A stretch of DNA of 63,639 nt from Nemertoderma westbladi. Lineage: Eukaryota; Animalia; Xenacoelomorpha. The translations under genes and the position numbers were made by a program. The notes beneath the pieces are model-generated. The model searched no databases. It was not told the origin of the DNA and was given only the letters and a program-made list of their open reading frames with translations. Below are positions 4,482 through 55,430 of this stretch, piece by piece (positions within the stretch are counted from its first letter, which is position 1; every line of letters begins with the position of its first letter). The stretch covers positions 1-63,639 of the forward strand of contig JAUCBJ010003479.1 of the NCBI GenBank assembly GCA_032718475.1. The letters run 5' to 3'.

Positions 4482-4804
4482 GCATCATGTTTATCAATTT
4501 AGATTACCTAAACAAAGGTACCGGTATATAAATAAATTGGGTTAATTAAATTCAAATACACATTTTCATTTTACTTTACATTTTACCAATGTCAAAAGTA
4601 GTAACCAGTAAAGTTATATAAATTTACTAAATATTACAGTATGTTTCCTTAGTCCAAATCCTTTTCTCTACTGTACCTTTATTACGTCAGTTAATTCTCG
4701 CCGCCCACCTTGAATAAATCGGAGAAAAAAAAAAAAAAAAAAACTTTCCATCTGTTGCCGCCCACCTTGAACCAATCCATTTAGGTTGCTTTCCAATTAT
4801 TCGC

Positions 4805-9545: not shown

Positions 9546-9745
9546 AACTGGACCGTCAGTTATTATATTTAATTACAATTATCATTGTTAATTCGCCGAG
9601 ACGAGACATTATTTCGCCGAGATGAGATTTAAGTATCAATATCAGTCAATATCTATAGTTGCAATATCTTTGCGAATGTTTATTCCCTTAGCATTCTCAT
9701 TGCCACTTCTATATGGTGTACTGTAGCAACCAACAGAACATAACA

Positions 9746-11015
9746 TGTAAAAGCTTCTGTGGGATATAACTGGCCCTTTTGCTTCGCAATCCAGTTTCCC
9801 CCCCCCCCCCAGGCGCTGGAATACTCTAAAAGGTTCTCTAACTGTATATATATTCCCCTCGCCCGCAAGGTACCGTTATAGGTGTTTTAACGGACATAAA
9901 AGTCCTTCTGCTATATACGTGTTTTGGCGGACATGGTAAGGCAAAAAACCTGCAATGTACCAAATACCTTTACACAGCTTAGCCTTGATGATTCAGATTG
10001 CGACATCTAGCAGCTGGTTGCTGGCATGGAAACAGCCATTGGACGCAGGGTTCTTTGTTTGGCTTGAGCCAATCAGAGCGATTTTTTCTGTCGACGTGTA
10101 GATATTTGGTCGATCATGCTGGGAGTGTTCAGTCTTACTGTTTTTTTAGTGATACTTTGTGTTATTGCTATCTGGGCCAGGAACACCGGCTAGAGTCAAC
10201 TCGGTTTCATACTTTAGAAGAAACATTTGTAGGCTTAAATTATAGAGCGTATAACCGTTATCATAACTTATCACATCACTTATCTAATCATATCAACTGA
10301 TCGCAATTCAGTCGTACATTATCGGTTCAATATACATTATTATACTGCTATTTACTATTGTTTGGTTGAATATTATTTGGAGAACATTTATAAAGAACCC
10401 AAATTTCCCAATTTTCTTGATACACTACAGGTTAGAGAGACGGGTTATATATAGCGATTGCGACTTATATTATTGTGTATGTAGTGAATTTAATGCTATT
10501 TGATAAGCACTACATTGGTCCGTTGCTGTTCTCTTTATATATGATAAAAATCATTGACGGTCGGCAAATTAGTGGGCAGTATTGTGTGTTACCGGTAGTG
10601 TGCATGATTGTGACTGATAACGAAGCATTTCCTAAAGAATGCGCCTTATACGTGAATCATAAGCCTTACTGTTGCGTGTAGTATAAGTCATATCTCTGTT
10701 TACCTAGATAGAGCGCCACGTCGTAAAGGAACTGTTAATATTTCCCGAAAGTGAATAATATTAGTCAGAAATTATTTATTAACGATCAATCGAATAATAC
10801 AATACAGTAAGCTTCACTGCAATAATAATCTGAGCCCTCAGAATCCAGTCTCCCGGGTATATCCAGCGGGTGAATGGACGCGCACTAGGCTGGCTTCTGC
10901 TAATGTTGTTTTTATTGGTATTAAATATTTGTCATCTTCTAAAGTCTATTTATAAACCAAAAGACATATAAATTTTGGCAGGTTAAACTGCTAAAGGTCT
11001 TCAAAAGCGCTTACA
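9746..11015 (+). repeat. LTR1 (1270 bp)
   Basis: Runs TGTAAAAGCTT...AAGCGCTTACA. It is nearly identical to 27389-28652: about 10 substitutions seen by eye plus a C13 vs C7 run. Confidence 0.95.
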
Positions 11016-11081
11016 ATAACGGTTATTGACTTTATTGCAGTAAGCAATAAAGTTGAAAGTACCGGTCGACCGGTAAACCTG

Positions 11082-11910
11082 AACCGGTACTTCTGTAGGT
11101 CCGTAGGCCCAACTGCCAGAACCGGTACTGCTGTAGGTCCGTAGGTCCAACTGTCAGAACCGGTACTTCTGTAGGCCTGTAGGCCCAACTGTCCTAACCG
11201 GTACTTCCAGTATAAGTACATTAGTATTATTCGATTTTGATTATTGTATACTGGTAGGTCTTAGTATTTAATCAGGGACTGCAGCCCTGGTTTTTTATTG
11301 AGATTTTACTCATTTCTGTCGGTTTTATTTACATGTAAGTTAATATTGAGCTGAAGACGTGTAAGTCTGCTCAGATTGTTCAGATAATTGTAGGCCGGAC
11401 CGTTGTTAGATTGTTGTTGAGTTTGGAGAGATTACGGCGTGTGTAGAGTTTGTCCGATAGAGTGCCAGTTAGTAAGTTAGGGCAGCCATAGCTGTAAGGT
11501 AAATCCCCTCTTAAAGAATAAGTCGTACTACCGTGTTAGAACGCATACTAACTAACAATTTTGGAATCTGCACATACTGTAGTTTATTTAGGCTTGACAG
11601 TATTCTGCCAGCGCTTTGGCCTGTGTTTGTTTGTGTGGTCTGTTCAGGTACCGTAATAGTTATTACTCAGATATTTTGTAGGCTGGATTGTTGTCTAGCT
11701 ATTATTAGGTCTGAAGAGATTGCTGCGTGTGTAGAGTTTGTCCGATAGAGTGCCAGTTAGTAAGTTGGGGCAGCCATAGCTGTAAGGTCAATCCCCTCTT
11801 AAAGAATAAGTCGTACTACCGTGTTAGAACGCATACTAACTAACCGTTTTGGAATCTGCACATACAGTAGTTTATTTAGGCTTGGTGGTAGTCTGCCAGC
11901 GTTTGGTTTG
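11082..11910 (+). repeat. Leader repeats: ~39-bp ACCGGTAC repeats (11082-11207) and a duplication with ~288-bp period (~11426 and ~11714)
   Basis: ACCGGTACTTCTGTAGGTCCGTAGGCCCAACTG... occurs 3-4 times. GTGTGTAGAGTTTGTCCGATAGAGTGCCAGTTAGTAAG... occurs twice. Both recur in the second unit (~28720-29545). Confidence 0.9.
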
Positions 11911-13248
11911 TATTTTGTTTGAGTATTCTGTACGGGTAGCGTAATATTTATTATTCAGAGTTTATGCGATTATTCGCAACATTCATGTCCCCAAGTTTAT
12001 TCCTACAGTAATTGTGTTTGTTACACATACCGTTATAGTTAAATTAACCCCGGTACTACACGGGCTGCTTGGCGTAGGTAAAGACTGGTGATTTCGTGCA
12101 CTGGTCACTCCAGCAGATGCCGTGGTTCTTTTAACTGTTCAAGTATATTTAACTACTGATTATTTGTTGTACCAGTACTTGTACCTAATTTAGGGTTTAG
12201 TGTACAGTGCTTTCCGAAAGTAATTAGTGTGTAGGCAGTATATTTGTGTTGTAAAGTGGTTAATAGGCACGTTGGATCTGGTAGTCCGCGGTAATTAACT
12301 TCCAGGTAGGAACACTCCGTGATACATAACGTAGTACCTATAGCGATACGGCTATAGGTCGTCAGGCGGTGGTATTTTCCTATCTGGACAGTGCAATATA
12401 TTTACTACTACTTATTATTTTCAAATACCGTAGTACCCTGTCCGTTGTAATAACCAGAATTCTAACCCTTTGTTAGGCTGGTTTGTAGACTTCCTGTAAA
12501 ATTACCCTAAAAATTTCGTACGTAATATTTTGTTGTGTTTAATTAGAGAATTAATCTCACCCGTATCGTAAGTAATTTGTAGTATTAAGTAACTTAGGAA
12601 AATTAGAATAATCTGTTTTAGTGTCAAATAAGTAGCACTCCACTGAGAGCGCACAGCTTCTGTGTAGTGACCCCAGAAATAATAACATTTATTTCAAATA
12701 TTGACAAAATCCATTTTAAACGGGTATATAAATATTATAAATCAACTCAAACGATTTATAAATAGTAGGCCTGCCATACAACAACTAGGTCTCAATATCA
12801 GTTGGACTACTGCTTAAATAACGGTAACAAAGTAAGTTAAAGTAACCAAGTAACCCTAAAATATTCAGAAATTCAATTATTCTAAAATCATTGATATACC
12901 GGTATTTACCATAGGCTTATTATATTTATTTCTATAAATTTGAGCTAAAATCATACCGGTATTCTGTAATTAATTCTAGTTCATAATTATACTTATATAT
13001 ACTATAAGTGTAGGCTGTATACCGGTATTCACGATAGGCCTATTATATATTTATATATATTTGTGCTAAATTTATATACCGGTACTCTGTGACAAAACTA
13101 GTTTACAATACTTATATATATTATAAGTGTATACCGGTATTCTAATATACTGCAATAAATTACTGGTACTAGGCCAACGGTCATACTGAATTACTAGACT
13201 TGCTTTAACTGTAACTATAGCAGTAAGCATTCAACTGTATAGCTAAAC

Positions 13249-16200
13249 ATGTCTGACACTCAGCAAAACCTGTCAGACAGTCTAATCGATACAACCATCT
13301 GTGACACAGATAGGAGTGTGGAGCGATTAAGAAAGGAGTTCAGCTCACCTCCTACTGAAAGAAAAGTCATCCCTCCAGTAGTGGTATCGGACCCTAAGCT
13401 AATCCAACACCGTAGGTCTATCATCGGCACTCGGGCCCAAGTCAAACGGAACCAGGAAGCAGCTGTCCCACAGCAGCAACAGCCTAGTCAAGAAACTTGT
13501 TCCCAGCGATCCGATAGCTCCAGTAGTTCGGATACTGTCGAGCTGACCCCTGAACGCGGATTACGGATGGCGGCTAAAGCCTACTCGAACCCCCTTCTCA
13601 CCCTTCCTGCCGCAGTGCTAACTACTATATTGATTGCGGTGGAGGAACATCAAGCCGATTGGGCGAGAAATAAGCGAGCGACCCAAGATAATTATGCGGG
13701 ATATGCCAGGGAAGAATTGATGTCTATTGTCGAGTCACAATGGAACTTTCCCGGACCCGGACTCCCGTTAGATTTGTCCGAAGCTACTTGGGAAGACATA
13801 CACAGGATGGGAGTGACTAAAGATACAATGGATCCAGCTGTTTGGAAGAGGTCGGCAGCAGGATATGTGCAGGGATTCTTCGGCTCCTTAGAGCGATTAG
13901 AAGAACAACTGTTTCGACAACCCCAAGGACCTCAAGAGCAGGAAGAACTGCTATACCAAGTACGCGAAAGAACCCTACGCATTCGACTAATCCTATCAGC
14001 CTTTGAGGAAACTTCCAAAAGAAGACAGGACACGTCGCTGCAAGTTGCTGTCAAAACTTGGTTCCAGCGGGTAGGTCGCAAAGTACAAGAAACGGACCAG
14101 TGGAAATCCCAGCTGTCTGAGAGGCTAACCTATGAAGAACCAACCGATGCCACCCTTCCTCAAGTGGAAGGCGAAGAGACCGCAGAGAGACCACGAACGA
14201 GAGACGCCATAGATATTTATCTGTCCGACTATCAGCGATTCCTAGGAGACGAAGAGTTGAGGAGACGGCTGTCTGGACTCTCCCCTAATAGTGAAGGAAC
14301 CCAACGTGTGTTAGACTCAATCGATGCTGAAATGTTAGCTGCTAACCAAGCAGAATTTGATGAAAAACTCCGCCTCGCTAGAGTCCAAGAAGAACAAGTA
14401 AAGAAAAGACGGATAGAGGAACAAAAGGCGGCAGCTATGGCAGAAGCAGAAGCAGAAAGAAAGGCAGCGGCGGCAGAAGCAGAAGCAGAAAGAAAAGCAG
14501 CAAAGGCAGCGACGGCAGAAGCAGAAGCAGAAAGAAAGGCAGCGGCGGCAGAAGCAGAAGCAGAAAGAAAAGCAGCAAAGGCAGCGGCGGCAGAAGCAGA
14601 AGCAGAAAGAAAGGCAGCGGCGGCAGAAGCAGAAGCAGAAAGAAAAGCAGCAAAGGCAGTGGCAGAAGCAGAACGGAGAGCCTCTGAGCAGACTACCCAA
14701 CTGGAGTTGGAAAATCTGCAAGAGACGCAAGACAACATAAATAAACAGTTAACTGCTAGTCAAATGCAGATGATGAGACGATCTACTCCCAAACGCCAGG
14801 GATACACATCATCGGAGGAAAGCGAAACCACCGATCCTGAAGGCGGAGGAAATAGATCTCGTCTAAGCAGGCGTAGAAAAACATCTCGCCGTCACAAATT
14901 GCCTGATTTGCCCCCAGCTGTTAGAAGACAGCTAGCTAGCACAGACTTAGGTAGTACGGAACCCGCATACCAAACTATTCAGGTCAAAAGACTCCCTACA
15001 ATAGTTGATGAGCCTGAAATAATTAGGCCTGTCATTCCCAAAGTCACTTCTGTGTTAGAGACCCCTGTACTTCCAGAGCTCAACTCTAAATTCCCTTTAC
15101 ATAGTACTACACTGCCTGTACCCGGTAGAACAGTCCAAGAGAATATCCCTGTCCTGATAGCAGAGAGAGAAATCAAAGATTTGTCTCCCGTCGTCCCACA
15201 TCAGCCCGCTACAATGTTGGCGACTCCCGCTTCGGCGGTCGAGTGGGTAGAAGAGGGACGGCGGGGGATGAACCTCCTGCTCGGACAGATGCAGGAGACT
15301 GTCCACCAACTTAAGGGAACAGTAAGGGAAGGTAGGGCAGAATTGCAAGAAGTGCAGCAAAGTATCGCACTGGAACGCGACAAATTAGTCAATATACAAA
15401 AGGGCATACCAATACCCCCTGTAACATTGTGTCAACCTGTTAGGTCTGAAGTATTACATGCGCAAGGTGTGGAGCCTACACGCATCTATACTGCTAGTGA
15501 AGTAGAAACTCCTATAGCAAACCCTATTAAGGGTGATTATAGACCTGTTATTAATGATATTCCCTATAGACCTGATAATGATCCGAGAAATTTATATACC
15601 GATAATTCGATATTAAATAACACGATGGCCCAAGAAAGCTTTACGCGTCAGATGGCTAGAACAGAAGCCCGCCAAGCGGTCAAAGTGGGAGAGATCGTTA
15701 AATTCAATGGAGATGAGATGAAATGGTTACCTTTCAATGAATATTACAAAGATAGCATACAAAACTCTGTACTATCTCAGGAGAGAAACTTAGGTTCCTC
15801 ATCAAGTGCTTGGAAGGACCTCCCAGGTTAATGGCGTTAAAGTTTATTGGACATCCAGAAGGATTAAGACAAGTATGGGATACATTAAACATCAGGTATG
15901 GTAACAAGGATAACATAGCTAAGTATTTGTATGCAAAATTAGTAGCCCCCCGACACTTCCTTAGTAGCGGGATTATAGAGTTTTCCGATGAGATTCAAGA
16001 GATCTGTAGACAATTGGACTGGTTAGGTAAGTCTCATGAATATCAGAGTTCCATGGTTATTGGAGCAGTAGTCTCTACTTTACCAAAGGGTGGAGTATGT
16101 ACACGCTGGGACAAGAAAGTGTTGTACCTGAATGAACAACAACGACGAAGTCCTACCATGGCTGATCTCATGTCTTTCTTAGATGGTGAAGTAAAACTAC

Positions 16201-19200
16201 AGCTCATCAAGCAGTCCAGAGAGAAAACATCGGAAAATAAGGTAAGTGAGAAACCCGCTTCTAGGAGAAGAGTAACACCGGTGTGTTACACTGACGACGG
16301 CGAACGCCAAGCTTCTCAAGAAGAGGACAGCGGGAAAGACACTGAGAGATCTTACTACGTTGAAAAAACCTCAAAAGATGTAAGTAAATACAAGGCTCGA
16401 AACAACGATAGGAGAGAACAGGTTGCCAAGACCCCTCCTCAGTCTCCTAACAGAATACACCGAAGAAAACCCGAAGAAAAAACGAGAGTGCATCAAGTTA
16501 CCCAAGGTAAAGTGAGTAACATAAAACCTAACTGTGCGCTGTGCGACGGGACCCACCGTTTGAGTGCGTGTGCTGAATTTCTAAAGAAATCCCTTGTAGA
16601 CAGACGTGCAGTCGTATGGGATAAGCGGTTATGCTATAATTGCCTCAGACCAGGACACCAACGGCGAACCTGTTACTCCGACATAAAGTGTGCAAAGTGT
16701 GGCGCGAAACATCACATCTTGTTACACAGTGAGTTCGAACGAGACAAAATGAGTCAGGTAAGTGAGCCCGAACTACATGTCCAATTCAGTGATGTAAACG
16801 ACACTGATCAAGAATCTGAGATGGAAGGATTCTATACTGACGAATTCTCCGACGCCAACGAATCCTGTTATCTAATCAATACCGCAGTGTATCGAGCACT
16901 TACTTATGAAAAGGACACCAACAATGAGTTTTCCCCAACTACTTTTGCCAAACAACCATCTTGGAAAGCTCCAACTTCCAACGTAGGAATCAGAGAATTT
17001 CCTGTAGTGCAGGTAAGAGTTCACAGTCTTAACAAAAGTTACATAGTGAACGCCCTCCTTGACTCCGGCAGCACAGGAACATTCATCGATCAAGAACTAG
17101 CCGAAGATATCTTTGCTGGACAACCCAAGTTCCGGACTAAATTGAATATGTCAGGAATTATGCAGGTTTGGAAATCTACCGTAACGGCAGATTACTATGT
17201 AGGTGTGTTGTCCACCCCCCAGGATAAGTTAGGAGCACAAGGTATAAGGTCGGTAAAAATGGTGGCTATAAAGAACTTCGCTACTACTCAAGCAGACCTT
17301 TATAATTGGGACGAGGATGAGAGCATCCAACATCTTAAGATACCTCGATTCCAGACAGATTATCCTGGAGTGCAAATACTCATCGGCCAAAACGCGCATG
17401 AAGCGCTCGAAACATTGGAGAAACGGCCTGCTCAACCACAGCCACTGCAAACCTATGCGGTAAGAACTAGAGTAGGTTGGTACTTTACTGGCCCTTCCCG
17501 CAGGACTCTCGAAGAGAGAATGCCCCAAGAACAAATATACCAAGTAAACGATTGGGAAGTGGAGAGCAGTGAGGTGGACGAACTAACTGAGGGAACACCA
17601 TACTCCTCAGATAATGACGACATCTACCAACTCTTCGATGAAGAGAACACAATCGACCTACTTACAGAAAACCAAACTTGGAAAAATCAGGTGAACCTAT
17701 GTCAACTGATTCGCCCATCAGAACCCATCGCTTACAATGACGAACTCAACGATGAGATAGAGCGCTACAACGCTAGAACTCGGGACGAACTAGCCGTACG
17801 ATTCTTTACTCAGGAACTGGTAGAGCCCAATTCATATGATAAGGCTCTATCGATAGAAGAAGAAAGAGCCAAGCAAATCCAGGAAACAACTACACGTTTT
17901 TTAAAAGACCAAGGTAGATATGAAATCGGCCTACCATTTCGAAAACGAGAACCTAGATTTATAAATAACAGACCTTTGGCAGAGAAAAGAATCGCTCAAT
18001 TACATCGACGACTTACAGCTAATGCTTCAGCGAAAGAAATGTACCAAACTCAGCTGAAGAAATTTATAACAAAGGGATACGCGGAGCGAGTACCCGAAGG
18101 AACACCAGTGACTGAGAGAACGTATTACTTAACGCATCATTACGTTCCCAAACCCGGTAAACCACACGAAGTACGAGTCGTATTCTATGGCTCCGCCCTA
18201 TATATGGGCCAATCCCTCAATTCCGAGTTGTTACCAGGACCCAACTTACTCCAATCTTTGTTGGGAATACTTTTAAGATTAAGACAATATTCCATCGCGT
18301 TCGCCTCAGATATAGAAGGAATGTTCTTACAAGTCAAGGCGCTGGATAGAGATAGAGACAGCCTGAGATTTCTGTGGTGGCCTGAAGGAGACCTCAATCA
18401 GAAACCGGTAGAATACTGGATGACCATCCAGGCCTTTGGAATCATATCAAGCCCTTCCAACGCCTGCTCCGTGGTGCGAACCACTGCGAATGACAACCGA
18501 GACTCCTTCTCAAAAGAGGTGATAGACAACATCAAACGGAATATATACATGGACGACAATTTAAGGTCCCTTCCATCAGTAGAAGAAGCCATAGCTGTCG
18601 CGAAAGGAACGGTAGAGTGTTTGAAAAGAGGTGGATTTAGACTAACGAAATTCACCAGCAACTCCCGTGAGTTTCTAGAAGCGATACCGGTAGAAGACCG
18701 CGGAGCGAAAGACCTAGACTTAATAAAGGACGATCTTCCTGAAACCAAGACGCTAGGCTTGAAGTGGGACACTGAAAGAGACATCCTGTTTTTTCAGTTA
18801 AAACAGCGAGATAATCCAGTTCGGACCAAACGGATTTGTTTAAGTATTCTGAGCACTTATTTCGACCCATTGGGATTCATTAGCCCAGTTATATTGATTG
18901 CTCGCTGCTCGGAGTTTAGTACAACAAATGTGGCTTGAAAACCACTCATGGGACGATCCGCTTAAGGGAGAATTGTTAAGGAAATGGATGAAATGGGAAG
19001 ATTCTCTACCTGCCATCGAGAACTTTATAATTTCCCGTGCATATTTTGGCCATGTTCTCCCTACGTACTCTTATCAACTCCATGTGTTTGGAGACGCCAG
19101 CGACATGGGAATAGGTATAGTAGCATATCTGCGAGTCGAAACTCCGGATGGGATCAAGGTCGCCTTGGTTACCTCTAAGGCATTGATTAACAACAAGTTA

Positions 19201-21436
19201 AAGGTTCCTCGAGCGGAGTTAAAGGCAGCTTTATACGCTACAGCCATCGGCCGGAACGTAACGGAACAAATCGACTATCCACTGGAGAAAACGGTTTATT
19301 GGACCGACGCTTTACTCGTGTTGGAGTATCTAACCAATGAAGTCTGTCAGTTCAGCGTTTTTGTTACTAACTGAGTAGCTATTATTCTTAGTCGCACAAA
19401 GATAGATCAATGGAGACATTGCCCTGGTACGATTAATCCAGCCGATATCACCTCCAGGGGAGCAACTCCACAGGAACTGATAGATACTCCAGATTGGTTG
19501 GGTGGACCCGACTTCCTGAGCAAGGAAGAGGATGAATGGCCTCCTCACCTTACTACGGCAGAGATTAGACAAGCCAATGGAGCTGAGACAGTCAAACCTA
19601 AAACCCGGGCGAGTAAATCGAAGTTATTTAAACCGACTATCGATCTATCTGTATTACATACTTCCGGGAATGATGCTTCGGATCCACAATCCCTCAACAC
19701 AAATAAGTCTGTTGTGGAAATTAGAGATAAAGATTGGAAATCTGGAATACCAGACGTCTCGCAAGGAATCTCACCCATGCTGCAGAGAGCAATGCATCAT
19801 TACAGTTCCTGGAATCGGCTCTGTAAAGCCGTCACATATTTAAGACGATGTTTTCATCATCACTACTCCAGGACGAAGACCACTAGTGATACCGCTCCAT
19901 TGACATCTGCACAAGTTCATGTTATTAAAAATTTACCCAAATATAAGACATCTGACCGTTTTCTAAAGGAGAAAATTAGTCACCAGGAGCATGAAGAAAC
20001 CAATAAGCAGGTACTGAGACTCCTGCAATGCTATGAGGATCCCGAAAAGTATTTCCTGTTGTTAAGAAATCCGCAGATGCGCTTAAGGGATCGATTCTCG
20101 AGCACAATGATAGATGGGTTAATACGTGTTGGAGGAAGACTCACCAATGCGCCCTTATCCTTTGACACCAAATTCCCCATACTTATTAGAAATCTTGAAG
20201 TACAAATCAAGATGATTGTAGATGTTCACAGTAAACTTTATCATGCTGGCAGAGAACGATTCTTAGCGAAATTCGAACTCGCTATTATTTTAATAAACCC
20301 CGTAGAGCTCTGAACCAAGTTCTTAGGAACTGCATACCCTGTAGGAAAGCATTCAGTAGGCCTTTAACACAGCGAGAGGCAGAATTACCTAGGGAACGAG
20401 TAAGCTTCTATGAACCACCTTTTACTAATACTGGTGTAGATTTATTTGGCCCTATTGAAGTATATCGTGCGAGGACTATAGTCAAGAGATGGTGTGTCAT
20501 CTTCGTGTGCATGACTTGTAGAGCCATCCATCTCGATATGGTGAACGATCTATCTACCAACAGCTTCGTCTTAAGTTTACGACGACAGATCGCTCGCTTC
20601 GGGACGAGTAATACCATGAGATCGGATAAGGGAACGAACTTCATTGGTGCCAACAACGAAATACAGGCTTACGTGAAGGACTGGAACCAAAGACAGGGGA
20701 CGACCAGCTAAGGATAACAGCATCTAGCTGGACCTTCAACGCCGCCGACGCCCCTTGGTGGGGAGGAAGTTGGGAGAGATTAATTCGAAGTGTCAAAACC
20801 GCATTTCACTTTATAGTGCCATGCCGCGCGTATCTCACCGACGAACTTTTGCGGACGTTAATGGAGGAAATCGCTGCCTATCTCAACGAGAGACCGCTTA
20901 TGCCAGTCTCATCGAGTCCCGATTCCCTGGAAGCGCTAACACCCGCGCACTTCCTACTGAAGAAACCTGTAGCCATGCTCCCACGATCGGAGATTGCCGA
21001 CGGAGACGAATACTGCCGTCGAACTTGGCAGCTTATGCAGTTGCTATCCCGTCGTTTCGCTGACCATTTCGAGAAACATTATCTGCCCACGCTACAACTT
21101 CGAACTAAGTGGTTTGCGCAGCAAGAAAACGTCAGCGCCGGAGATATGGTGCTTATTGTAGATCCAGACCTCCCACGTAAACGGTGGCAGACAGGTCGTA
21201 TCATCGAGACCCACATCTCGGAGGATGGTTTAGTGCGCTCAGTAGAACTTGTCGTCATGCGGCGTAATTTCAAGAAGCCAGGCATAATCTTTGAGACGCA
21301 ACAACTCAATTGCCCAGTTGGTCGTTTATGTTTACTGGAAAGAGACAGAGAACTCTTTGGAAACTATGGAAGGCAAGACACTCTTCCCACGACCACCTCC
21401 CTAATTCCTCAAACATCTAGGGACTCCCTAACGTGA
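13249..21436 (+). pseudogene. gag-pol: BEL/Pao gag-pol polyprotein, disrupted by ~4 frameshifts and 1 stop
   Basis: Gag core KFNGDEMKWLPF; three knuckles CALCDGTHRLSAC, CYNCLRPGHQRRTC and CAKCGAKHH. Protease ALLDSGS (17061); RT SDIEGMFLQV and YMDD (18546); RNase H HVFGDAS, RAELKAA, WTDA and NPAD. Integrase HHCC plus GVDLFGP, SDKGTNF and GGSWERL. Breaks at ~15783, ~18900, TGA 19372-19374, ~20270 and ~20695. Confidence 0.96.
14437..14675 (+). repeat. Coding minisatellite in gag (AEAEAERKAAA / AEAEAERKAAKAAA), predicted long helix or coiled coil
   Basis: Repeated GCAGAAGCAGAAGCAGAAAGAAAGGCAGCGGCG units in frame. Confidence 0.93.
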
Positions 21437-22864
21437 TACGTCTGGAGTGGGTGTATGACTATATTGTTTTATCTAATTTATTATATTTTTATATGCGAAC
21501 TTTATTATGTACTTTATTATAATCGTTTTTATTCAATTTTATTTAGTAAAATGTTATTTAGTGATTATTTAGTAGATTAGTGCAATATATTAGTGTTTAT
21601 TACGTACGTAATTACTTAATATATATTTAGTGCGACGGCGAGAAAATAATTATTTTTCTCTTTCCTTACTGTCCGTATCATATTATAAATACGTGACTAC
21701 AGTAAGATGAAATGTCCGTACTTCTTAAAGTACAATAAAGCCACTACTATATTCAAGTATTATTGGTAGGCAGAGTATTAGGAATGCAAAGTTCAGATCC
21801 TCGTGTCTCGGCTAAACCAAGCTCTGGGTAGACCTTGGAAACGACTTGCCTCTTCACACTGACATTGCTTCGTGCGATATTGCTCTTCTACCTTATATTA
21901 AATAATACACATAGTAGCGTGATGTCCCTCTAACAGTAGCGTAAAACGCAAATAAATCTGTTAAACTTTTTGACCATCTGTAATTCTAGTCGATTAAGAT
22001 ATCGCGGCACCCACCGATATACTTGAAAGACAAATTCTAGAATCAGTGGTTAACGTCCCCAGACAAGTTCTGGAATAAATCGGTGCCCATCTTAAATATT
22101 AATTTAATATTTATTAAGATCTGTAAAATTCAGATCCGTTAACAATTCTAGTCGATTAAGATATCGTAGCACTTACCGATACTCTTAAAAGACAAATTTC
22201 ATAGAATTAAGGATCCTATGTCACCAGACCTGCTCTGGAATCAAATTGTGTCAATTTTAACATCAAATAATACAATTCACGGGAATAAATTTAAATTCAT
22301 ATTTTAAATGAATTTCATAAATTGTCATTTTGTACAATTTATAACATTCCCAAAATTCCATTAATTAATAGATCATGGGAGCGGAGATTCATCCTATTGA
22401 GTGTATTAGAGTGCGAGAATCTCCAACATATAGTCAATAGCCGATAAAATTAATAAAATCATGCATAAAGAGGATATTGACAATTAAAGAATTATTATTA
22501 AATAGCATCCCAGATCTGTATGCATGAGAATTAACCTAATTCTACCGCTAGCATTCCATAATGTCACCATAGCAACACCCACGCTAGAATTAGAAGCAAG
22601 TTAAAAGAACAATAGAAGGCTTATCCCATTGCATAGCATAGAATATAGCACACTGCTAGTATCCAAGGATACACAGTAATAACGTGACATTCTGGAAGGC
22701 ACTGACTAACGGACAAATGGCCTGTATGTGTGCAGTTGGTGACAGTTGTGTGGAATTTGTGCGTTTATAGGTGAATGTTACTGCTAAAGTATGTTTACAG
22801 TAGCTAGTCGCAATTGTAAAAGTAGCCCAACTCTCCTATAGAAAGAACCTAAGTGGATCCAAGC

Positions 22865-22986
22865 CTTTGGGACGGACAGTGGAGTAACTTGTGCCGGTTA
22901 TCGTTGTCGTGCTGTTGCTACATGTTGGCGTAAACACCGCGACGACGGTACATCGGCGCTGAGAATCCCACTGTCCGGGGGCAAAG
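22865..22986 (+). other. Long imperfect RNA hairpin upstream of the accessory ORF
   Basis: Nested pairings: CTTTG/CAAAG; CGGACAGTGG (22873-22882) with CCACTGTCCG (22968-22977); GTGCCGGT/ATCGGCGC; TATCGTTGTCGTG/CGCGACGACGGTA; TGTT/AACA; GCTA/TGGC. Several pairs are G-U. Confidence 0.8.
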
Positions 22987-23057
22987 AGAAGTAGGCAGCG
23001 ACGCCCGCTCGCCTAAATACAAACTTATTTGGATATTAATAAACTCAGATAGCAGAT

Positions 23058-26000
23058 ATGACGGAGTTGATAGAAGATGATCTTGGTATTAGGGAGCGAT
23101 ATACTCTACCTTTACAAGCATTTGTAGATAGCTTAATACGCGGTGAAGCCGATCCAACCATTACGGAGGACGATGGTCATTATATCGAACCGCCGATGTC
23201 CCAAGAGCAACTTGCGCGTGAATTGGACTATCGAAAATTCACCGCTCGCTATACGAATCGTAATGGTACGTATATGGACTTCTTAACTACCGGCCATCCT
23301 ATCGATTTGCATGATACGGACGATGTAGATACAGAGAGGGAAATGGTTCTATTTAAATATCATACCCAGCGGAGTCGTAACGATAAACCGAGAATAGATC
23401 ACGAAAATTCTATTCGTAATCGACTGGAAAGAGAAAACGTTGAAGAACCGGATAAACGCATCGACTTCAACGAATACCTAGAATTTTTGAGAGAAACCTA
23501 TCTCAACATCGCCAGTCAGCAGAACTTAGAGACTCGATATCCTCAAGGTATACATCACGACCCTGTGGTAGAACTCAAACGGCTCTATTTCACTATGATG
23601 TATCTTACCGCCGATCGTCCACTACCTGTTATCCCGGATAGTTTTGAACAAATGGAAGAATACTGCAAAACTGGAGAACGTTCACCCGCGTTTCCTCTAC
23701 AGGACGTACGTCTTTGGTATTATTGTGACGAATGCCCTAGACCCAACCAACAAACGGAAAGACACAAACATCCGCGGAGACGTTGCGCTAAACATAGTTT
23801 TACGCATTACACTTACGGGAGTTTCGAGCGAAACCTGTTCGACATACCACCCATGATCGCTCGTCTTAAACGATCACTGAATAAATCCATGATCAGAGTT
23901 CCGGAATACTCGGTCAGGCCTCCTCATTCCCTAGTGAGACCTCAAACTCTTGATCCTAACAGTATCACTGATCCTCCCGAACTATATTCCCTGTTCAAAG
24001 ACTTAGTGTTACCCGAACAATTAATCGGTGGTGCTCCGGTAGTAGGTTCGTTAGACATCCGCCCATCCTACTTAGCCGGATTGGGACGCGGGCAGCTAAT
24101 ATCGCCCTTTGATCCTTACAATCGTCCAGGATTAAACCCGATGCAACCCGCCACGGAAGTCGAGGAGAGCGTTATAAGAAACGCTTTAGACGCCATTCGA
24201 CAGAAAATCGGAAAGGGAACACAAGATTGTTTAGAGAAACGTAAATTACAACAACAAGTCCAATCGGTGAAGGAGTTAGCCTTGCCACAGTTCGATAGAG
24301 AAATCCAAAACCTCGAGGAAGACATCGAGCTTGGACGCACGTATTCTCTACAAGAATTTTTAGATGAACGCTTACAGAGACAAGCGGAAGAAAATCTAAT
24401 CGAAGAGAAACACACGAAACTGGAAGAAAGAGAAGAAGCCGCTTTAGCCCAACCTGAAGCTCAAATCCTCATGACAGACCTCTACTCTAAAACCGTTCGT
24501 CATCCCTCGATGATTCCACATTTCGGAGACAAGCTCTTCGCGACGATACAGCCTCAACCGGTTGATATCAGTACAGGATCGCAAAATCTTATCGCTGACG
24601 CCCCTATGTTACAGCGTCCGCCGATCGAGGCCGCTCGTGTTGACGGTATACTCGTTGAACCTCCGGACAATCGAGCGGATCTTGTCCGTCGTATGGTACA
24701 TGATGTCAACATACGCGCTAGACCTTTACAGAACTCGTTTTATGGGATTAAAGACCACCCTTATTACGTTAATCTGACTCAATATTATATGGTAAAACCA
24801 GAAGACCCGACGCATAATTTAAAGTTTCTACCACTAATAAATCCTCTAGACATTGTCGAACTCGAACAATTGCAGAAACATCTGGATCAGTTAGTAAAGG
24901 TAAACTCATTTAGAAAACCATATAACATTTCTCGAATCGAGAAAGATATAGAACCTCCTTATAATCTCGATGGATTTATTAAAACTCGATTAGTCCATTG
25001 GAATCTAGATGTATTATTTGAAGAAGAGAAAATACAAAGATATGGAAATGTGGAGACGTATACCACTCGGCATATGAAGTATAGTGATCTCCCTGACGCT
25101 AACCAATGCGCCACCTTGTGGCATCCAGTAGGGATGACCCTAGAGAACGCCACCAAGGAGTGGAATGAAACTCTTAATGTTATTGAGATGTATGGAGTTG
25201 TCACCTACGATAATGAAGGTAGCGTTCCGGTCGGAGAACTAGGAACTACGCGCATGATTCACATACGCGGATTAGCTGGTTCTACCCACGTGTTTACTCG
25301 AGCGTGTTCCGACGTGATTGATTATTCCTTTGAAACTCTCACCGAAACACAAAAGAATCTCCGACATGGACAATTCGAACTCGCGCAGCGTTACGTCATT
25401 GACACCGAACGCAAACCGGCCATGGGCATCGATGGATCGATGTTACCCCAGCCCGTACTCGAAATGTTGTTCAACGAAAGAATCCTTAAAATCGGCTCAG
25501 CTGTTTATGGAGATCTCCAAAACGACTTTCGGAATATGGAGGACATTCCATACCCTTTCGTTGATACTCAGCTGATTGCTCCCTGGGCAGAAGGTCGAGG
25601 TTTCTTCCGCACCATGTATGCTAATACGCCTAGCAACATTACCAAGGTGCAACGAACTTCCATCGGACATCTCGCCTTTCAGGAATACGGATGGAATTTC
25701 AAAGTCGGAAATCCCATTAACTATCAACAAGTATACGGAGACCATTATTCTCGATTATACTTTGATGGACCATTGACCGCACCTGGCGCCGTGTATAGCT
25801 TCATGAGTGTTCCACTCCGTCCCTCCTTAGCTATATACACGATCTTTGAAAACACCGCACTTGCCGGTTGGCTAGCCGATGTGTGCAGTCGTACTATACG
25901 CGCCCATCCATTAATACTTGGGACCAAACTCGCTAAGCTAGATGAACATAATAAATTCATCCGTTTCGAATGTTTCCGGCGATTTTTAACCCCGTTCCAC

Positions 26001-27310
26001 AACGTGGATAGCCAATTTAAAGACCGCGCTTTGACCAAGCTCAGCCTAAGAGACTCAGCTGCAGAGAAGTTGGATAGCGCTGGATTCGCCGTTTTCCAAG
26101 AGATTTGTATATCAAACTTACACTCCTCTGTTATACAAAGACCTCGAATCCCCACAGGTTATTCTGTCGTGGAAATTCAGACAATAGGTCCACCTGAAGA
26201 GACAGACGCGCCCACTTCAGCTATGCACTTGGAAGACGAACCAATATGTTTAGAATCTGAAGAGATTCAGCCTATCGCGCCCCAGACCAGCGACAATGAT
26301 TACATCATAGAATGGTATCAAGGTCCACAGTGTCTCACTGCGTACGATTATCGAGATGCCAACTATGTTTCTAGGCAACGTTGTCGGTTATGCGCATCGA
26401 GAGACCACGATACGCCCATGGACACAACGTCCGCTGTTCCTATTTCCAAGAACAACCGACTATGGAAATTTATTGCGCATATTGCAGACTCAATAACTTG
26501 CATATCTTTGCGGTTTGCCCCCAATTTATGACTCAATGTCACCATTGTCAACTAAAGGGACATGCCAGTTTCGATTGCCCCTTTAATCACGATTTGGAAA
26601 GCGTAGATGAAATGATCACACTACGTTACATCAGAGCTTGGGAAGCGAACGCTGATTTACATTGTGATTCGCGCCATCGCTATTATCCCGGACGCGCTTA
26701 CGAAGGAGTTTATGCGTTCCATCCTTATCTATTCGCTTCGGTTGAACAGAAATCACGCATATCAAGTTACGAGCTACTGAAGCGCGTTGGAGAATGTATT
26801 TCAACCAAATTCGTACGCAAATTTCTCAGGAGTGTTAATCCTAGCGACCTTCATTCCTATAACTTAATCAATTATATCCGTCAGGATCCGGACTATGGAG
26901 ACTTGTTTGTTAACTCACACCCCGAGTTACAGTAAGTACATCGACGGCCTTACGAATACCGAGCCCGCGAACGCGAGTTGGAAAGGACCATTAAACCCCG
27001 GAGGTTTCTAACTGCTTATGGTCCACCCACGGCCCTCGTTCAGACCACTCGTAAAGGACCCGTAAGAGCGGCTGTCTTGAAACGAGCTCTCAAAGCCGTT
27101 AGACCCCTCTCCCCTGACGTTGATGTCAATCAACCCGGTACTTCGACTGGCGGATACACCGACCATAATCCTACACCCTCTGATGCAATCATATTGCACC
27201 CTTCACCCAGGAGTTATAGCCCTCCTTGTAAAGTGGCTCGCCCCAAAGAGAAAAAGACTCTGGCTAGCTTTAAGAAACTGCGTAAACGCCGTCCGCGCAA
27301 GAAAGACTAA
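23058..27310 (+). CDS. Accessory ORF (~1400 codons reconstructed): DEDDy 3'-5' exonuclease-like domain, CCHC zinc knuckles and a basic NLS-like tail; one frameshift and one in-frame stop
   Basis: ExoI-like VVTYDNEG (D at 25209, E at 25215). ExoII-like LPQPVLEMLFNERILKIGSAVYGDL (D at 25512), then FVDTQLIA and SIGHLAFQEYG. ExoIII-like RPSLAIYTIFE. A -1 shift at ~26413 leads into CAYCRLNNLHIFAVCPQFMTQCHHCQLKGHASFDC. After TAA 26933-26935 the same frame stays open to KKLRKRRPRKKD* at 27310. Confidence 0.82.
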
Positions 27311-27377
27311 CTGTTTAGAGTATTTACGTATATTAGAAACTGTGATTTTGTATATTTTATAGACTCAAATCCCATTT

Positions 27378-27388
27378 TCTGGGAGCGG
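27378..27388 (+). other. Polypurine-tract position (TCTGGGAGCGG) abutting LTR2
   Basis: G-rich tract immediately before the TG of LTR2. Confidence 0.75.
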
Positions 27389-28652
27389 TGTAAAAGCTTC
27401 TGTGGAATATAGCTGGCCCTTTTGCTTCGCAATCCAGTTTCCCCCCCAGGCGCTGGAATACTCTAAAAGGTTCTCTAACTGTATATATATTCCCCTCGCC
27501 CGCAAGGTACCGTTATAGGTGTTTTAACGGACATAAAAGTCCTTCTGCTATATACGTGTTTTGGCGGACATGGTAAGGCAAAAAACCTGCAATGTACCAA
27601 ATACCTTTACACAGCTTAGCCTTGATGATTCAGATTGCGACATCTAGCAGCTGGTTGCTGGCATGGAAACAGCCATTGGACGCAGGGTTCTTTGTTTGGC
27701 TTGAGCCAATCAGAGCGATTTTTTCTGTTGACGTGTAGATATTTGGTCGATCATGCTGGGAGTGTTCAGTCTTACTGTTTTTTTAGTGATACTTTGTGTT
27801 ATTGCTATCTGGGCCAGGAACACCGGCTAGAGTCAACTCGGTTTCATACTTTAGAAGAAACATTAGTAGGCTTAAATTATAGAGCGTATAACCGTTATCA
27901 TAACTTATCACATCACTTATCTAATCATATCAACTGATCGCAATTCAGTCTTACATTATCGGTTCAATATACATTATTATACTGCTATTTACTATTGTTT
28001 GGTTGAATATTATTTGGAGAACATTTATAAAGAACCCAAATTTCCCAATTTTCTTGATACACTACAGGTTAGAGAGACGGGTTATATATAGCGATTGCGA
28101 CTTATATTATTGTGTATGTAGTGAATTTAATGCTATTTGATAAGCACTACATTGGTCCGTTGCTGTTCTCTTTATATATGATAAAAAACATTGACGGTCG
28201 GCAAATTAGTGGGCAGTATTGTGTGTTACCGGTAGTGTGCATGATTGTGACTGATAACGAAGCATTTCCTAAAGAATGCGCCTTATACGTGAATCATAAG
28301 CCTTACTGTTGCGTGTAGTATAAGTCATATCTCTGTTTACCTAGATAGAGCGCCACGTCGTAAAGGAACTGTTAATATTTCCCGAAAGTGAATAATATTA
28401 GTCAGAAATTATTTATTAACGATCAATCGAATAATACAATACAGTAAGCTTCACTGCAATAATAATCTAAGCCCTCAGAATCCAGTCTCCCGGGTATATC
28501 CAGCGGGTGAATGGACGCGCACTAGGCTGGCTTCTGCTAATGTTGTGTTTATTGGTATTAAATATTTGTCATCTTCTAAAGTCTATTTATAAACCAAAAG
28601 ACATATAAATTTTGGCAGGTTAAACTGCTAAAGGTCTTCAAAAGCGTGTACA
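27389..28652 (+). repeat. LTR2 (1264 bp), shared: 3' LTR of unit 1 and 5' LTR of unit 2
   Basis: Runs TGTAAAAGCTT...AAGCGTGTACA and is followed by the same leader (ATAACGGTTATTGAC...) as LTR1. Confidence 0.95.
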
Positions 28653-30885
28653 ATAACGGTTATTGACTTTATTGCAGTAAGCAATAAAGTTGAAAGTACC
28701 GGTCGACCGGTAAACCTGAACCGGTACTTCTGTAGGTCCGTAGGCCCAACTGCCAGAACCGGTACTGCTGTAGGTCCGTAGGTCCAACTGTCAGAACCGG
28801 TACTTCTGTAGGCCTGTAGGCCCAACTGTCCTAACCGGTACTTCCAGTATAAGTACATTAGTATTATTCGATTTTGATTACTGTATACTGGTAGGTCTTA
28901 GTATTTAATCAGGGACTGCAGCCCTGGTTTTTTATTGAGATTTTACTCATTTCTGTCGGTTTTATTTACATGTAAGTTAATATTGAGCTGAAGACGTGTA
29001 AGTCTGCTCAGATTGTTCAGATAATTGTAGGCCGGACTGTTGTTAGATTGTTGTTGAGTTTGGAGAGATTACGGCGTGTGTAGAGTTTGTCCGATAGAGT
29101 GCCAGTTAGTAAGTTGGGGCAGCCATAGCTGTAAGGTCAATCCCCTCTTAAAGAATAAGTCGTACTATCGTGTTAGAACGCATACTAACTAACAATTTTG
29201 GAATCTGCACATACTGTAGTTTATTTAGGCTTGACAGTATTCTGCCAGCGCTTTGGCCTGTGTTTGTTTGTGTGGTCTGTTCAGGTACCGTAATAGTTAT
29301 TACTCAGATATTTTGTAGGCTGGATTGTTGTCTAGCTATTATTAGGTCTGAAGAGATTGCTGCGTGTGTAGAGTTTGTCCGATAGAGTGCCAGTTAGTAA
29401 GTTGGGGCAGCCATAGCTGTAAGGTCAATCCCCTCTTAAAGAATAAGTCGTACTACCGTGTTAGAACGCATACTAACTAACCATTTTGGAATCTGCACAT
29501 ACAGTAGTTTATTTAGGCTTGGTGGTAGTCTGCCAGCGTTTGGTTTGTATTTTGTTTGAGTATTCTGTACGGGTAGCGTAATATTTATTATTCAGAGTTT
29601 ATGCGATTATTCGCAACATTTATGTCCCCAAGTTTATTCCGACAGTAATTGTGTTTGTTACACATACCGTTATAGTTAAATTAACCCCGGTACTACACGG
29701 GCTGCTTGGCGTAGGTAAAGACTGGTGATTTTGTGCACTGGTCACTCCAGCAGATGCCGTGGTTCTTTTAACTGTTCAAGTATATTTAACTACTGATTAT
29801 TTGTTGTACCAGTACTTGTACCTAATTTAGGGTTTAGTGTACAGTGCTTTCCGAAAGTAATTAGTGTGTAGGCAGTATATTTGTGTTGTAAAGTGGTTAA
29901 TAGGCACGTTGGATCTGGTAGTCCGCGGTAATTAACTTCCAGGTAGGAACACTCCGTGATACATAACGTAGTACCTATAGCGATACGGCTATAGGTCGTC
30001 AGGCGGTGGTATTTTCCTATCTGGACAGTGCAATATATTTACTACTACTTATTATTTTCAAATACCGTAGTACCCTGTCCGTTGTAATAACCAGAATTCT
30101 AACCCTTTGTTAGGCTGGTTTGTAGACTTCCTGTAAAATTACCCTAAAAATTTCGTACGTAATATTTTGTTGTGTTTAATTAGAGAATTAATCTCACCCG
30201 TATCGTAAGTAATTTGTAGTATTAAGTAACTTAGGAAAATTAGAATAATCTGTTTTAGTGTCAAATAAGTAGCACTCCACTGAGAGCGCACAGCTTCTGT
30301 GTAGTGACCCCAGAAATAATAACATTTATTTCAAATATTGACAAAACCCATTTTAAACGGGTATATAAATATTATAAATCAACTCAAACGATTTATAAAT
30401 AGTAGGCCTGCCATACAACAACTAGGTCTCAATATCAGTTGGACTACTGCTTAAATAACGGTAACAAAGTAAGTTAAAGTAACCAAGTAACCCTAAAATA
30501 TTCAGAAATTCAATTATTCTAAAATCATTGATATACCGGTATTTACCATAGGCTTATTATATTTATTTCTATAAATTTGAGCTAAAATCATACCGGTATT
30601 CTGTAATTAATTCTAGTTCATAATTATACTTATATATACTATAAGTGTAGGCTGTATACCGGTATTCACGATAGGCCTATTATATATTTATATATATTTG
30701 TGCTAAATTTATATACCGGTACTCTGTGACAAAACTAGTTTACAATACTTATATATATTATAAGTGTATACCGGTATTCTAATATACTGCAATAAATTAC
30801 TGGTACTAGGCCAACGGTCATACTGAATTACTAGACTTGCTTTAACTGTAACTATAGCAGTAAGCATTCAACTGTATAGCTAAAC

Positions 30886-52174: not shown

Positions 52175-52341
52175 CTAATTAAAATATATTAATTTAAACA
52201 CATCACATTAAAAGTTGCGCTTTATCCAACCCTGGCCGTTCCGTTCCTACGTGTACTACAACATCCATTTTTGGCTTATACTCGTAGCGTAAACCATCCC
52301 CTCATCCTCTCTCCCGCCGTATAAACCATATTATCTACGTT

Positions 52342-55390: not shown

Positions 55391-55430
55391 ATATATAAAT
55401 ATATAATTTATTCATGTGTTATTGTTATAG

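Follow-up and report, generated by a model that had tools for sequence, protein, structure and literature searches.

The replication of BEL/Pao retrotransposons, tRNA-primed by definition, counts as poorly understood; typical members have genomes of 4.2-10 kb, LTRs of 0.2-1.2 kb and an 18-nt site for host tRNA-Arg or tRNA-Gly (PMC8742986). Tabulated BEL/Pao medians are 7.4 kb in length and 0.38 kb in the LTR, with maxima of 22.8 kb and 2.4 kb that possibly include nested inserts (PMC3118150). Self-priming is known from Gypsy and Copia lineages: in Tf1 the primer comes from the initial 11 bases of the RNA, with RNase H cleavage (PMC7175516), and the Tf1/sushi group, plant Tcn1 and TAR lack a tRNA site and have about 11 nt behind the 5' LTR that complement their own LTR (PMC7175516, PMC4600332, PMC6317226). 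The bdelloid rotifer elements Juno and Vesta carry in the env position an RNase D-like gene, ORF3, without a transmembrane segment and with altered last motifs, for which a part in 3'-end processing or silencing has been proposed (PMC5408684). Three-LTR forms of BARE1 and Cassandra, with two internal domains among the three LTRs, involve LTR recombination or template switching (PMC7215508), and the very large, high-copy planarian LTR elements Burro and GYPSM1 have accessory domains that include AIR1-like knuckles (PMC6431247).

The window analyzed here, a 63,639-nt stretch of Nemertoderma westbladi DNA, contains two BEL elements. For the first, the original prediction had proposed an ~18.9 kb LTR-to-LTR unit with ~1.27 kb LTRs; both values hold for the span from LTR1 to LTR2, but a third LTR had been missed and the insertion ends at 33164. 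Its boundaries and repeats are as follows.

9741..9745, plus strand: left target-site duplication, TAACA
9746..11015, plus strand: LTR1, 1270 bp, ends TGT...ACA; AATAAA absent inside, ATTAAA at 10920
27381..27388, plus strand: polypurine tract immediately 5' of LTR2
27389..28652, plus strand: LTR2, 1264 bp, TGT...ACA, common to both tandem units
28653..32215, plus strand: second unit, with copied primer-binding position, leader and 5' gag, and an internal deletion of ~13 kb
32216..33164, plus strand: partial LTR3, the 3' 949 bp of the third LTR, which closes the insertion
33165..33169, plus strand: right target-site duplication, TAACA, 5 bp; one duplication brackets the whole three-LTR tandem

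The insertion of 23,419 bp (9746-33164) is thus a three-LTR tandem with a repeat unit of 17,643 bp, in which a single LTR-to-LTR element measures 18.9 kb. LTR1 and LTR2 differ by 10 substitutions and one 6-7 bp homopolymer gap, the leader and 5' gag of the second unit are 99.5% alike to those of the first (18 substitutions in 3568 bp), and each of the three LTRs and two leaders carries substitutions of its own. Copies of the unit and of the LTR diverge by 0.3-0.8%, far less than the contigs of the family do, which favors one origin for the tandem. The tandem most likely formed at or soon after insertion, either by unequal exchange between LTRs or by template switching, and the second unit would later have lost ~13 kb to a microhomology deletion. 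The present copy is defective: gag, pol and the third ORF all contain breaks. In its arrangement it resembles the three-LTR forms of BARE1 and Cassandra, from which it differs in that an ORF3-LTR-leader-gag junction, with the nearest AATAAA outside the LTR, is found in two BEL elements of one window (PMC7215508); the double junction and the placement of AATAAA hint at a possible high frequency of tandems among such BEL elements.

The internal region upstream of the third ORF comprises the following features.

11016..13248, plus strand: non-coding leader, 2233 bp, with internal duplications of ~290 bp and ~125 bp
13249..15831, plus strand: gag N-terminal ORF, with low-complexity and A/E/K repeats, running into DUF1759; frame break near 15756-15831
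15756..18938, plus strand: gag C-part, protease and reverse transcriptase; DUF1759, LLDSGS at 17055, YMDD at 18546
18898..21436, plus strand: RNase H and integrase in four pieces; Peptidase_A17, DUF5641, integrase zinc finger, core motifs at 20436/20622/20771
21437..23057, plus strand: AT-rich spacer, 1621 bp, with six AATAAA and z <= -2 in 4/13 windows
21444..21454, plus strand: purine tract and TGT, 7 nt past the pol stop, like a true PPT/LTR junction and also kept by a related contig (run X4)

Frame breaks in the RNase H-integrase part lie near 18900-18938, 19372-19374, 20235-20313 and 20630-20711. In BEL/Pao, gag has three Cys-His knuckles, the last one ending in His; here, motif reading places three at 16533, 16632 and 16689. 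Because of these knuckles, the matches to Peptidase_A17 (E 1.6e-27), DUF5641 (E 1.6e-20) and DUF1759 (E 3.6e-6), and the motif order PR-RT-RH-IN, the element is assigned by its enzymes to BEL/Pao, as had been proposed, as a variant rather than a typical Semotivirus. No relative of its reverse transcriptase was found in viral_contigs. The TG...CA LTRs, the 5-bp duplication, the triple gag knuckle, the enzyme order, the Pao-specific Pfam domains, the purine tract 5' of the 3' LTR and the optional third gene behind pol are shared with Belpaoviridae, whereas the length of 18.9 kb, the LTR of 1.27 kb, the 2.2-kb leader, the 1.6-kb spacer and the lack of a TGG-marked tRNA site set it apart from typical members (PMC8742986). 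The contention that BEL/Pao elements are typically much shorter agrees with the 4.2-10 kb range and is tempered by the tabulated maxima (PMC3118150); the size is unusual for BEL/Pao, but no record. A structured leader of 2.2 kb had been predicted, and its length is confirmed, but strong structure is confined to its start (the window that begins at 11016 has z -5.0), with z <= -2 in 3/18 leader windows, 3/20 pol windows and 2/20 windows of flank DNA. The spacer, also of the predicted length, shows no similarity to the LTR, and the tract at 21444..21454 may be a relic LTR border or a second plus-strand origin.

Behind the spacer, where env would be, lies the sense ORF predicted at ~1400 codons, present in this copy in three pieces.

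23058..27310, plus strand: third ORF, ~1417 codons, with breaks near 26375-26531 and at 26933-26935
25176..25901, plus strand: DEDDy-type (RNase D / PF01612-like) 3'-5' exonuclease-like domain, with motifs at 25206, 25506 and 25836

The ORF consists of an N-part of ~700 aa that matched no known family, the exonuclease-like domain, a double zinc knuckle located in the second piece, a motif common to its homologues and a basic tail (K/R at 13 of the last 25 residues). Its N-terminus is acidic. As predicted, it is free of a transmembrane segment, since the highest 19-residue hydropathy mean is only 1.21; no Pfam family and no fusogen homology were found for it, and Pfam left the exonuclease-like domain undetected as well. 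The gene product is predicted to be a soluble nuclease-like protein, unlike the env-like third genes of Belpaoviridae. In the ESM Atlas, the nearest clusters to the domain belong to PF01612 (at 0.90), and 10 of the 10 best family matches fall within the same family or clan; the RNase D model TIGR01388 aligns to the second motif (E 0.0038). A search for relatives among 1.84 billion proteins returned a single distant homologue, P0001 (domain E 1.1e-5; 31% identity over 150 columns), which itself matches PF01612 weakly (E 0.2) and shares the exonuclease-plus-knuckle layout. The score of the knuckle alignment with P0001 was reached by 0/2000 shuffles for both elements of the window, and the P0001 knuckles resemble nucleocapsid and Air2 knuckles in PDB; the first exonuclease motif aligned alone is not significant (1289/2000 shuffles do as well). 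AlphaFold models (pLDDT 31 and 37) were too low to use, and the fold search gave no result. On this converging weak evidence, the third ORF likely holds a DEDDy-type exonuclease with zinc knuckles.

Of the original prediction, the knuckles and the basic tail were borne out, and exonuclease-like motifs are present, the third of them in a non-canonical form. That motif is Y-x3-D in canonical DEDDy enzymes; the third ORF and P0001 both have the D-x-E and D motifs followed by Y-x3-E. This change of the last acidic residue, seen in both proteins, may mean that the domain has no nuclease activity. A somewhat unlikely extension of this is that the protein is a counter-silencing or RNA-packaging factor whose dead nuclease fold, like that of Maelstrom or EXD1, binds RNA and does not cut it; the strong divergence of the domain, the nucleocapsid- and Air2-like knuckles and the action of inactive DEDD derivatives in piRNA pathways (PMC5408684) agree with it, while the retention of acidic residues at all four motif positions in two ~30% identical proteins, and the reading of rotifer ORF3s with an altered motif (DEED) as intact (PMC5408684), argue against it. 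The gene resembles that of Juno and Vesta in the features given above, although those elements are not BEL/Pao (the clades of that paper being Juno, Vesta, TelKA and Mag), have LTRs of 159-551 bp and low copy number, and differ, by their descriptions, in that the domain here lies within a ~1400-residue knuckle protein (PMC5408684). Burro and GYPSM1 are likewise very large, high-copy and knuckle-bearing, but belong to the Gypsy superfamily, exceed 30 kb and have an env-like region, with no exonuclease named in the excerpt (PMC6431247).

The start of the leader bears on priming.

10251..10261, plus strand: candidate self-primer; reverse complement, without mismatch, of the first 11 nt behind the LTR; identical in LTR2 and LTR3
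11016..11026, plus strand: primer-binding position, without TGG, complementary to LTR positions 10251-10261
11026..11056, plus strand: hairpin of 13 bp immediately following the primer-binding position; its stem contains AATAAA (11046)

As originally noted, no TGG occurs in the 85 nt behind LTR1, where the 18-nt tRNA-Arg/Gly site of BEL/Pao was not found. The complementarity to the element's own LTR, which had gone unnamed, is a candidate substitute. It covers 11/11 nt and begins at the first base past the LTR end, which is fixed by the target-site duplication. In LTRs generated by Markov models of order 1-5, an equal match arose in 6-24 of 3000 trials (0.2-0.8%), with six start positions allowed; an 11-nt complement was reached at 5/2203 leader positions and 52/32066 other positions. 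The 11-mer is a near-palindrome whose AACGG/CCGTT cores recur in the LTR, and the site could therefore be a repeated protein-binding motif. The duplex is of ordinary energy, with 102/218 control windows at least as stable, and is predicted in 3/24 start/end choices, those with a start <= ~30 nt from the site and an end at 11100; no TATA/Inr motif places transcription start at 10251. The recurring cores and this weak, context-dependent duplex would fit an unlikely scenario in which the complement has arisen by chance from a recurring DNA-binding motif, a host RNA (a tRNA half or other small RNA) primes, as half-tRNAs do in copia elements (PMC6317226), and the third ORF is unrelated to priming. 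The exact adjoining of complement and LTR end, at the chance given, weighs against it, as does the second element, which lies on the minus strand.

1..2135, minus strand: BEL gag, 25% identical to that of the first element over 315 columns, continuing beyond the window
3214..3226, minus strand: primer-binding position, 4 nt past the predicted LTR end, without TGG; followed by AATAAA in a hairpin, at 3188
3231..4700, minus strand: putative LTR, preceded by a purine tract, with TATAAAA at 3575 and an Inr-like motif at 3544, ending in CA; one copy in the window, with predicted ends
3512..3524, minus strand: candidate self-primer, 13-nt exact complement of 3226-3214
4805..6756, minus strand: 3' part of an accessory ORF homologous to the third ORF, with knuckles and the shared motif; a satellite near 6700 truncates it upstream

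Despite the low identity of the two gag regions, the second element has a 13-nt match that is non-palindromic, is longer than any other exact inverted match within 2.6 kb and has a length reached by 6/32066 control positions. Its duplex is more stable than 104/104 control windows, with a mean pairing probability of 0.51-1.0 in 15/18 start/end choices. The predicted echo of the first element thus holds for the knuckles, the missing TGG and the homologous ORF, likewise placed before an LTR-like region, but no exonuclease was detected in the ~650 retained codons. The missing TGG, the exact adjacent 11-nt complement and the 13-nt match in the second BEL point to Tf1-like priming, and the first element is likely primed from its own RNA and not by tRNA, Tf1 priming being known by experiment and that of the present BEL predicted from sequence (PMC7175516, PMC4600332, PMC6317226). 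Literature searches yielded no report of self-priming in BEL/Pao, and no description in this group of self-priming together with an exonuclease gene.

A quite unlikely alternative assigns primer formation to the exonuclease: the LTR site at the 3' end of the RNA would pair with the primer-binding position, and the nuclease would trim the unpaired tail to a paired 3'-OH usable by reverse transcriptase; the third gene would then have been gained, and tRNA priming lost, in a single adaptation. RNase D-type enzymes trim the 3' ends of structured RNAs (PMC5408684), both elements combine a missing TGG with homologous third ORFs, and the candidate primer of the second element lies ~20 nt (about +21) past the predicted start and not at +1, unlike in Tf1; on the other hand, RNase H alone suffices for Tf1-type priming (PMC7175516), and the retained part of the second accessory ORF gave no exonuclease. 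Extended further, to a new BEL/Pao lineage without tRNA in which the knuckle-exonuclease creates the primer and a poly(A) signal outside the LTR, 3' of the primer-binding position, makes head-to-tail tandems the preferred source copies, the proposal becomes highly unlikely.

Further copies were assessed with contigs from four runs, representing at most 3 samples and 3 studies. Matches to the element numbered 86,818 / 134,466 / 35,479 / 722, mostly 90-99% alike. With the element divided into 30 bins, all were covered in 4/4 runs, and in run X1 the depth was 0.20-1.20 million in accessory bins and 0.35-1.52 million in gag-pol bins; within the reach of short contigs, copies lacking 21.45-27.39 kb, which the original prediction had named as its refutation, did not appear. 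Joints skipping the accessory region numbered 0 among the 15 listed of 88, and of six differences listed in the long frame of the third ORF, a small, tool-selected sample, four fall at third codon positions. As far as short contigs can tell, the accessory region is family-wide in a high-copy family; at 100-460 nt, they do not place each accessory copy inside a BEL element. That this region is a one-off insertion, or the tandem an assembly artefact, is barely credible and largely refuted: a purine tract and TGT do lie right behind pol, where an ordinary BEL LTR would begin, and none of the contigs listed spans the unit, but diverged contigs cover the entire region in four runs, the second element has its homologous ORF in the same place, and the separately substituted LTRs and leaders stand within one target-site duplication.

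Taken together, we favor, at about an even chance, the explanation that the insertion is a recent three-LTR tandem from a high-copy BEL/Pao family that likely primes itself and, in its third gene, likely encodes a DEDDy-type 3'-5' exonuclease with RNA-binding knuckles. Under the favored explanation, transcription would begin at or slightly before LTR position 10251, the RNA 5' region would fold back on the 11 nt behind the LTR, and the primer would be excised, as it is in yeast Tf1, by the element's own RNase H. Masking of the nearby AATAAA by the adjacent hairpin would give full-length RNA, and plus-strand synthesis would start from the purine tract at 27381-27388, perhaps from 21444 too. The third protein, translated from an mRNA that is spliced or starts internally, would be an accessory RNA-end factor, probably not required for making the primer; its knuckles and basic tail would bind RNA while the nuclease trims 3' ends, either on element RNA or on silencing RNAs of the host.

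Since 2017, no role has been assigned to the DEDDy gene of the low-copy rotifer elements. A very abundant family in which a probable DEDDy gene is retained, fused to knuckles, offers many natural copies for the study of covariation, selection and expression, and the nuclease domain, unbroken in this copy, can be assayed by itself. As standard LTR finder settings cap the distance at 12 kb and the LTR at 1 kb and filter by tRNA (PMC6562904), such elements would be missed and more may be hidden. Should primer formation by the exonuclease be true, it would constitute a third LTR priming mode beside tRNA and RNase H self-cleavage; if self-priming of the Tf1 type is true, the BEL elements described here would add one more independent origin of this priming mode, in the sole LTR superfamily for which no report of it was found.

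Self-comparison of the window revealed a long direct repeat (9746-14583 versus 27389-32220, 99.3% identical), the LTR portion of which has a third copy at 32216-33168. The main retrotransposon insertion, element 1, is organized as follows:

9746-11015, forward strand, LTR1, with TGT...ACA ends
23058-27310, forward strand, third ORF, the accessory gene after pol
27389-28652, forward strand, LTR2, with TGT...ACA ends
downstream of LTR2, forward strand, third LTR, partial, the last 949 bp only

Behind LTR2 come another leader and 5' gag and then the third LTR remnant, and the whole is bracketed by a 5-bp duplication (TAACA) before 9746 and after 33164. The insertion is therefore a three-LTR tandem, 23,419 bp long, whose tandem unit measures 17,643 bp. 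The 18.9 kb LTR-to-LTR unit of the original prediction is real, but its right boundary at 28652 was rejected as the insertion end, because the second leader and gag, the third LTR and the right TAACA lie beyond it. The second unit has lost ~13 kb at a deletion junction where a few bases are shared. This deletion begins within an expanded A/E/K-rich repeat in gag (14430-14681 and 32067-32215), a region where several contig joints of the public sequencing runs are also located. The tandem copies diverge by only 0.3-0.8% (10/1263 positions in the LTR, 17/3563 in leader and gag), and both units therefore derive from one element and have about the age of the insertion. The layout resembles the three-LTR structures known for BARE1 and Cassandra (PMC7215508). 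A leader structured throughout its length was also considered and rejected.

The pol pieces of element 1 match Peptidase_A17 (E 1.6e-27), DUF5641 (E 1.6e-20) and DUF1759 (E 3.6e-6), gag carries three Cys-His knuckles and the domain order is PR-RT-RH-IN; by sequence, the element is classified as BEL/Pao. Gag-pol of this copy has five breaks, its third ORF two. According to the ICTV profile (PMC8742986), BEL/Pao elements measure 4.2-10 kb, have LTRs of 0.2-1.2 kb and carry an 18-nt primer site for tRNA-Arg or tRNA-Gly; a 62-genome survey reports median lengths of 7.4 kb and maxima of 16-23 kb (PMC3118150). The description of the element as a giant therefore holds against the typical range and median but not against the maxima: it is large among BEL/Pao elements, but no size record. 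Pattern matches in metagenome contigs yielded no related loci (0/52 and 0/182), and viral contigs no relative of its reverse transcriptase (0/3).

Whether the accessory region is a one-off insertion in this copy was evaluated using four public runs, which represent at most three samples from three studies and the best of which may be the window's own source. Contigs matching 9300-29200 numbered 86,818, 134,466, 35,479 and 722 in the four runs, mostly 90-99% alike, and covered 30/30 bins of this interval in each run. In run X1, contig depth, which is not a copy number, was 0.20-1.20 million for spacer and third ORF bins and 0.35-1.52 million for gag-pol, and none of the 15 joints listed, out of 88, skips the accessory region. 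Copies lacking 21.45-27.39 kb, a prospect raised at the outset, thus did not emerge, and a one-off insertion is unlikely given the complete coverage, similar depths and absence of skipping joints among those listed; these short contigs cannot link the ORF to pol copy by copy. A second purine tract and TGT lie seven nucleotides beyond the pol stop codon, at the place expected for the LTR of an ordinary BEL element; they may mark the point at which the accessory cassette was gained or a second plus-strand origin. The spacer was also considered as a diverged LTR copy, which was rejected on finding only a 20-nt match (E 0.03).

The third ORF lacks a hydrophobic segment (hydropathy maximum 1.21), in agreement with the predicted absence of a transmembrane segment, and has no Pfam match, and an env-like role was rejected on both grounds. 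Pfam, NCBIfam and PHROGs contain no match to its first ~700 residues (23058-25150), which comprise a charged helical stretch and, at 23724, a Cys/His cluster. In ESM Atlas, residues 640-1010 lie closest to clusters of PF01612 3'-5' exonucleases, with a score of 0.90 that is also reached by 4-10 of 100 shuffled proteins. The acidic DEDDy motifs originally proposed read D-x-E, D and Y-x3-E both here and in P0001, a distant database homolog. The NCBIfam RNase D model matches the second motif (E 0.0038); the first, aligned alone, is not significant (1289/2000 shuffles), and the third departs from the canonical Y-x3-D. Because MAFFT misregistered the first motif, its columns were excluded from MAFFT alignment comparisons. 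Searches with the domain returned nothing below E 0.5 in PDB sequences and no match in PHROGs, two AlphaFold models were of too low confidence for fold comparison, and word-based homolog searches with the third ORF retained none of 3535 and 311 candidates. The domain, which none of the ORF's breaks interrupts, very probably adopts an exonuclease fold, and the balance tips slightly towards the predicted exonuclease being catalytically active.

P0001 (648 aa) was the sole match among 1.84 billion representatives searched with HMMER (E 1.1e-5), and is 31% identical to the third ORF across 150 columns of the exonuclease-like domain. C-terminal to this domain it presents three zinc knuckles and a motif, which align with the second piece of the third ORF and with the accessory ORF of element 2, a second, distant BEL element, at scores reached by 0/2000 shuffles in both cases. 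A small protein family with a nuclease-linker-knuckles layout therefore occurs outside this host too. Outside the window, no relative of the third ORF besides P0001 is known. P0001 is a single record on one 9449-bp contig, and a word-based search with it recovered only itself (1/7990). Its linker is of low complexity.

Element 2 lies on the minus strand (1-6756), runs off the window and has a leader with ~100-bp repeats (2505-3114); its gag is 25% identical to that of element 1. Its accessory ORF is followed by a purine tract, then by ~1.5 kb in which TATA and Inr-like motifs occur and which ends in CA, and then by leader and gag, the LTR end being deduced from one copy. In both elements the first AATAAA past the promoter region falls just outside the LTR, at 30 nt (element 1) or 43 nt (element 2) of the leader, within the stem of a hairpin directly behind the complementary site; the hairpin-window z is -5.0 for element 1, whereas the corresponding window of element 2 has a z of 0.3. 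Both elements also show the ORF-LTR-leader-gag junction of a tandem, and together these features suggest, as two cases rather than a rule, that read-through and tandem copies could be frequent in these elements. A satellite of ~85-bp-based higher-order units (6692-9548) interrupts the accessory ORF of element 2; its end lies about 200 bp upstream of the main insertion. Where the element 2 LTR starts (minus strand, 4700-4770), a short poly-T stretch is flanked by a 15-bp direct repeat that includes the purine tract, an arrangement resembling a small retroposed insert. Elsewhere, the window contains non-LTR (LINE-like) reverse transcriptase ORF fragments at 33962-34594, with a DUF6451 match, and 43581-44342, both on the minus strand; nested inverted repeats at 39621-40287, foldback- or MITE-like, with 167-nt arms 98% complementary; and ~140 copies of a 21-bp unit at 52195-55400, 95-99% alike, with several frames open.

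In contrast to the tRNA site of the ICTV profile (PMC8742986), element 1 has no TGG behind its LTR, as had been predicted; the window contains no tRNA gene, and no Rfam family was found within 1-34000. The first 11 nt after the LTR (11016-11026) are instead the exact reverse complement of LTR positions 10251-10261, and both sites are identical in the other copies within the tandem. An equal match arose in 6-24 of 3000 trials of Markov controls (order 1-5, site left out of training) and at 5/2203 leader positions. The site is near-palindromic and its cores recur within the LTR; 102/218 control windows were at least as stable as its duplex, which was predicted in 3/24 folding contexts only. In element 2, the 13 nt that begin four bases after the inferred LTR-end CA are exactly complementary to 3524-3512. 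This is the longest inverted match within 2.6 kb, and its duplex exceeds 104/104 control windows in stability and is paired in 15/18 folding contexts. Self-priming is probable on these sequence features. Two further exact complements, of 12 nt (11031-11042 with 13148-13159, connecting the hairpin that follows the primer site with a region 90 nt upstream of gag) and of 13 nt (10788-10800 with 11224-11236, involving the LTR), are possible alternative folds.

Each of these traits has precedent in another superfamily. The Juno and Vesta elements of bdelloid rotifers are reported to carry DEDDy genes of unshown function in env position (PMC5408684), a placement shared with the predicted gene of element 1. 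Full-text literature searches, in a collection with few subscription journals, turned up neither an exonuclease gene nor self-priming for any BEL/Pao element, and neither feature appears for BEL in passages of PMC13524379, PMC3601003, PMC3587641 and PMC5718144. On this literature the union of traits appears new within BEL/Pao; an entry of this type may already exist in Repbase, Dfam or GyDB, and long BEL elements of this build may also be present in the supplements of PMC3118150, PMC5408684 or bioRxiv preprints.

One account would couple exonuclease to priming, the nuclease shortening the RNA from its 3' end until it reaches the primer duplex. This is improbable: the element 2 ORF retains 650 codons in which a six-frame search found no exonuclease (nor had it a usable ESM Atlas match), and because of this the suggested co-occurrence of exonuclease and tRNA-site loss is a conjecture. 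Under the reading we favor, to which we give even chances as a whole, element 1 would represent a self-priming BEL/Pao family that works in this respect like Tf1 and encodes an accessory RNA-binding nuclease. This nuclease would act on RNA 3' ends, those of the element's RNA or those of silencing RNAs of the host.
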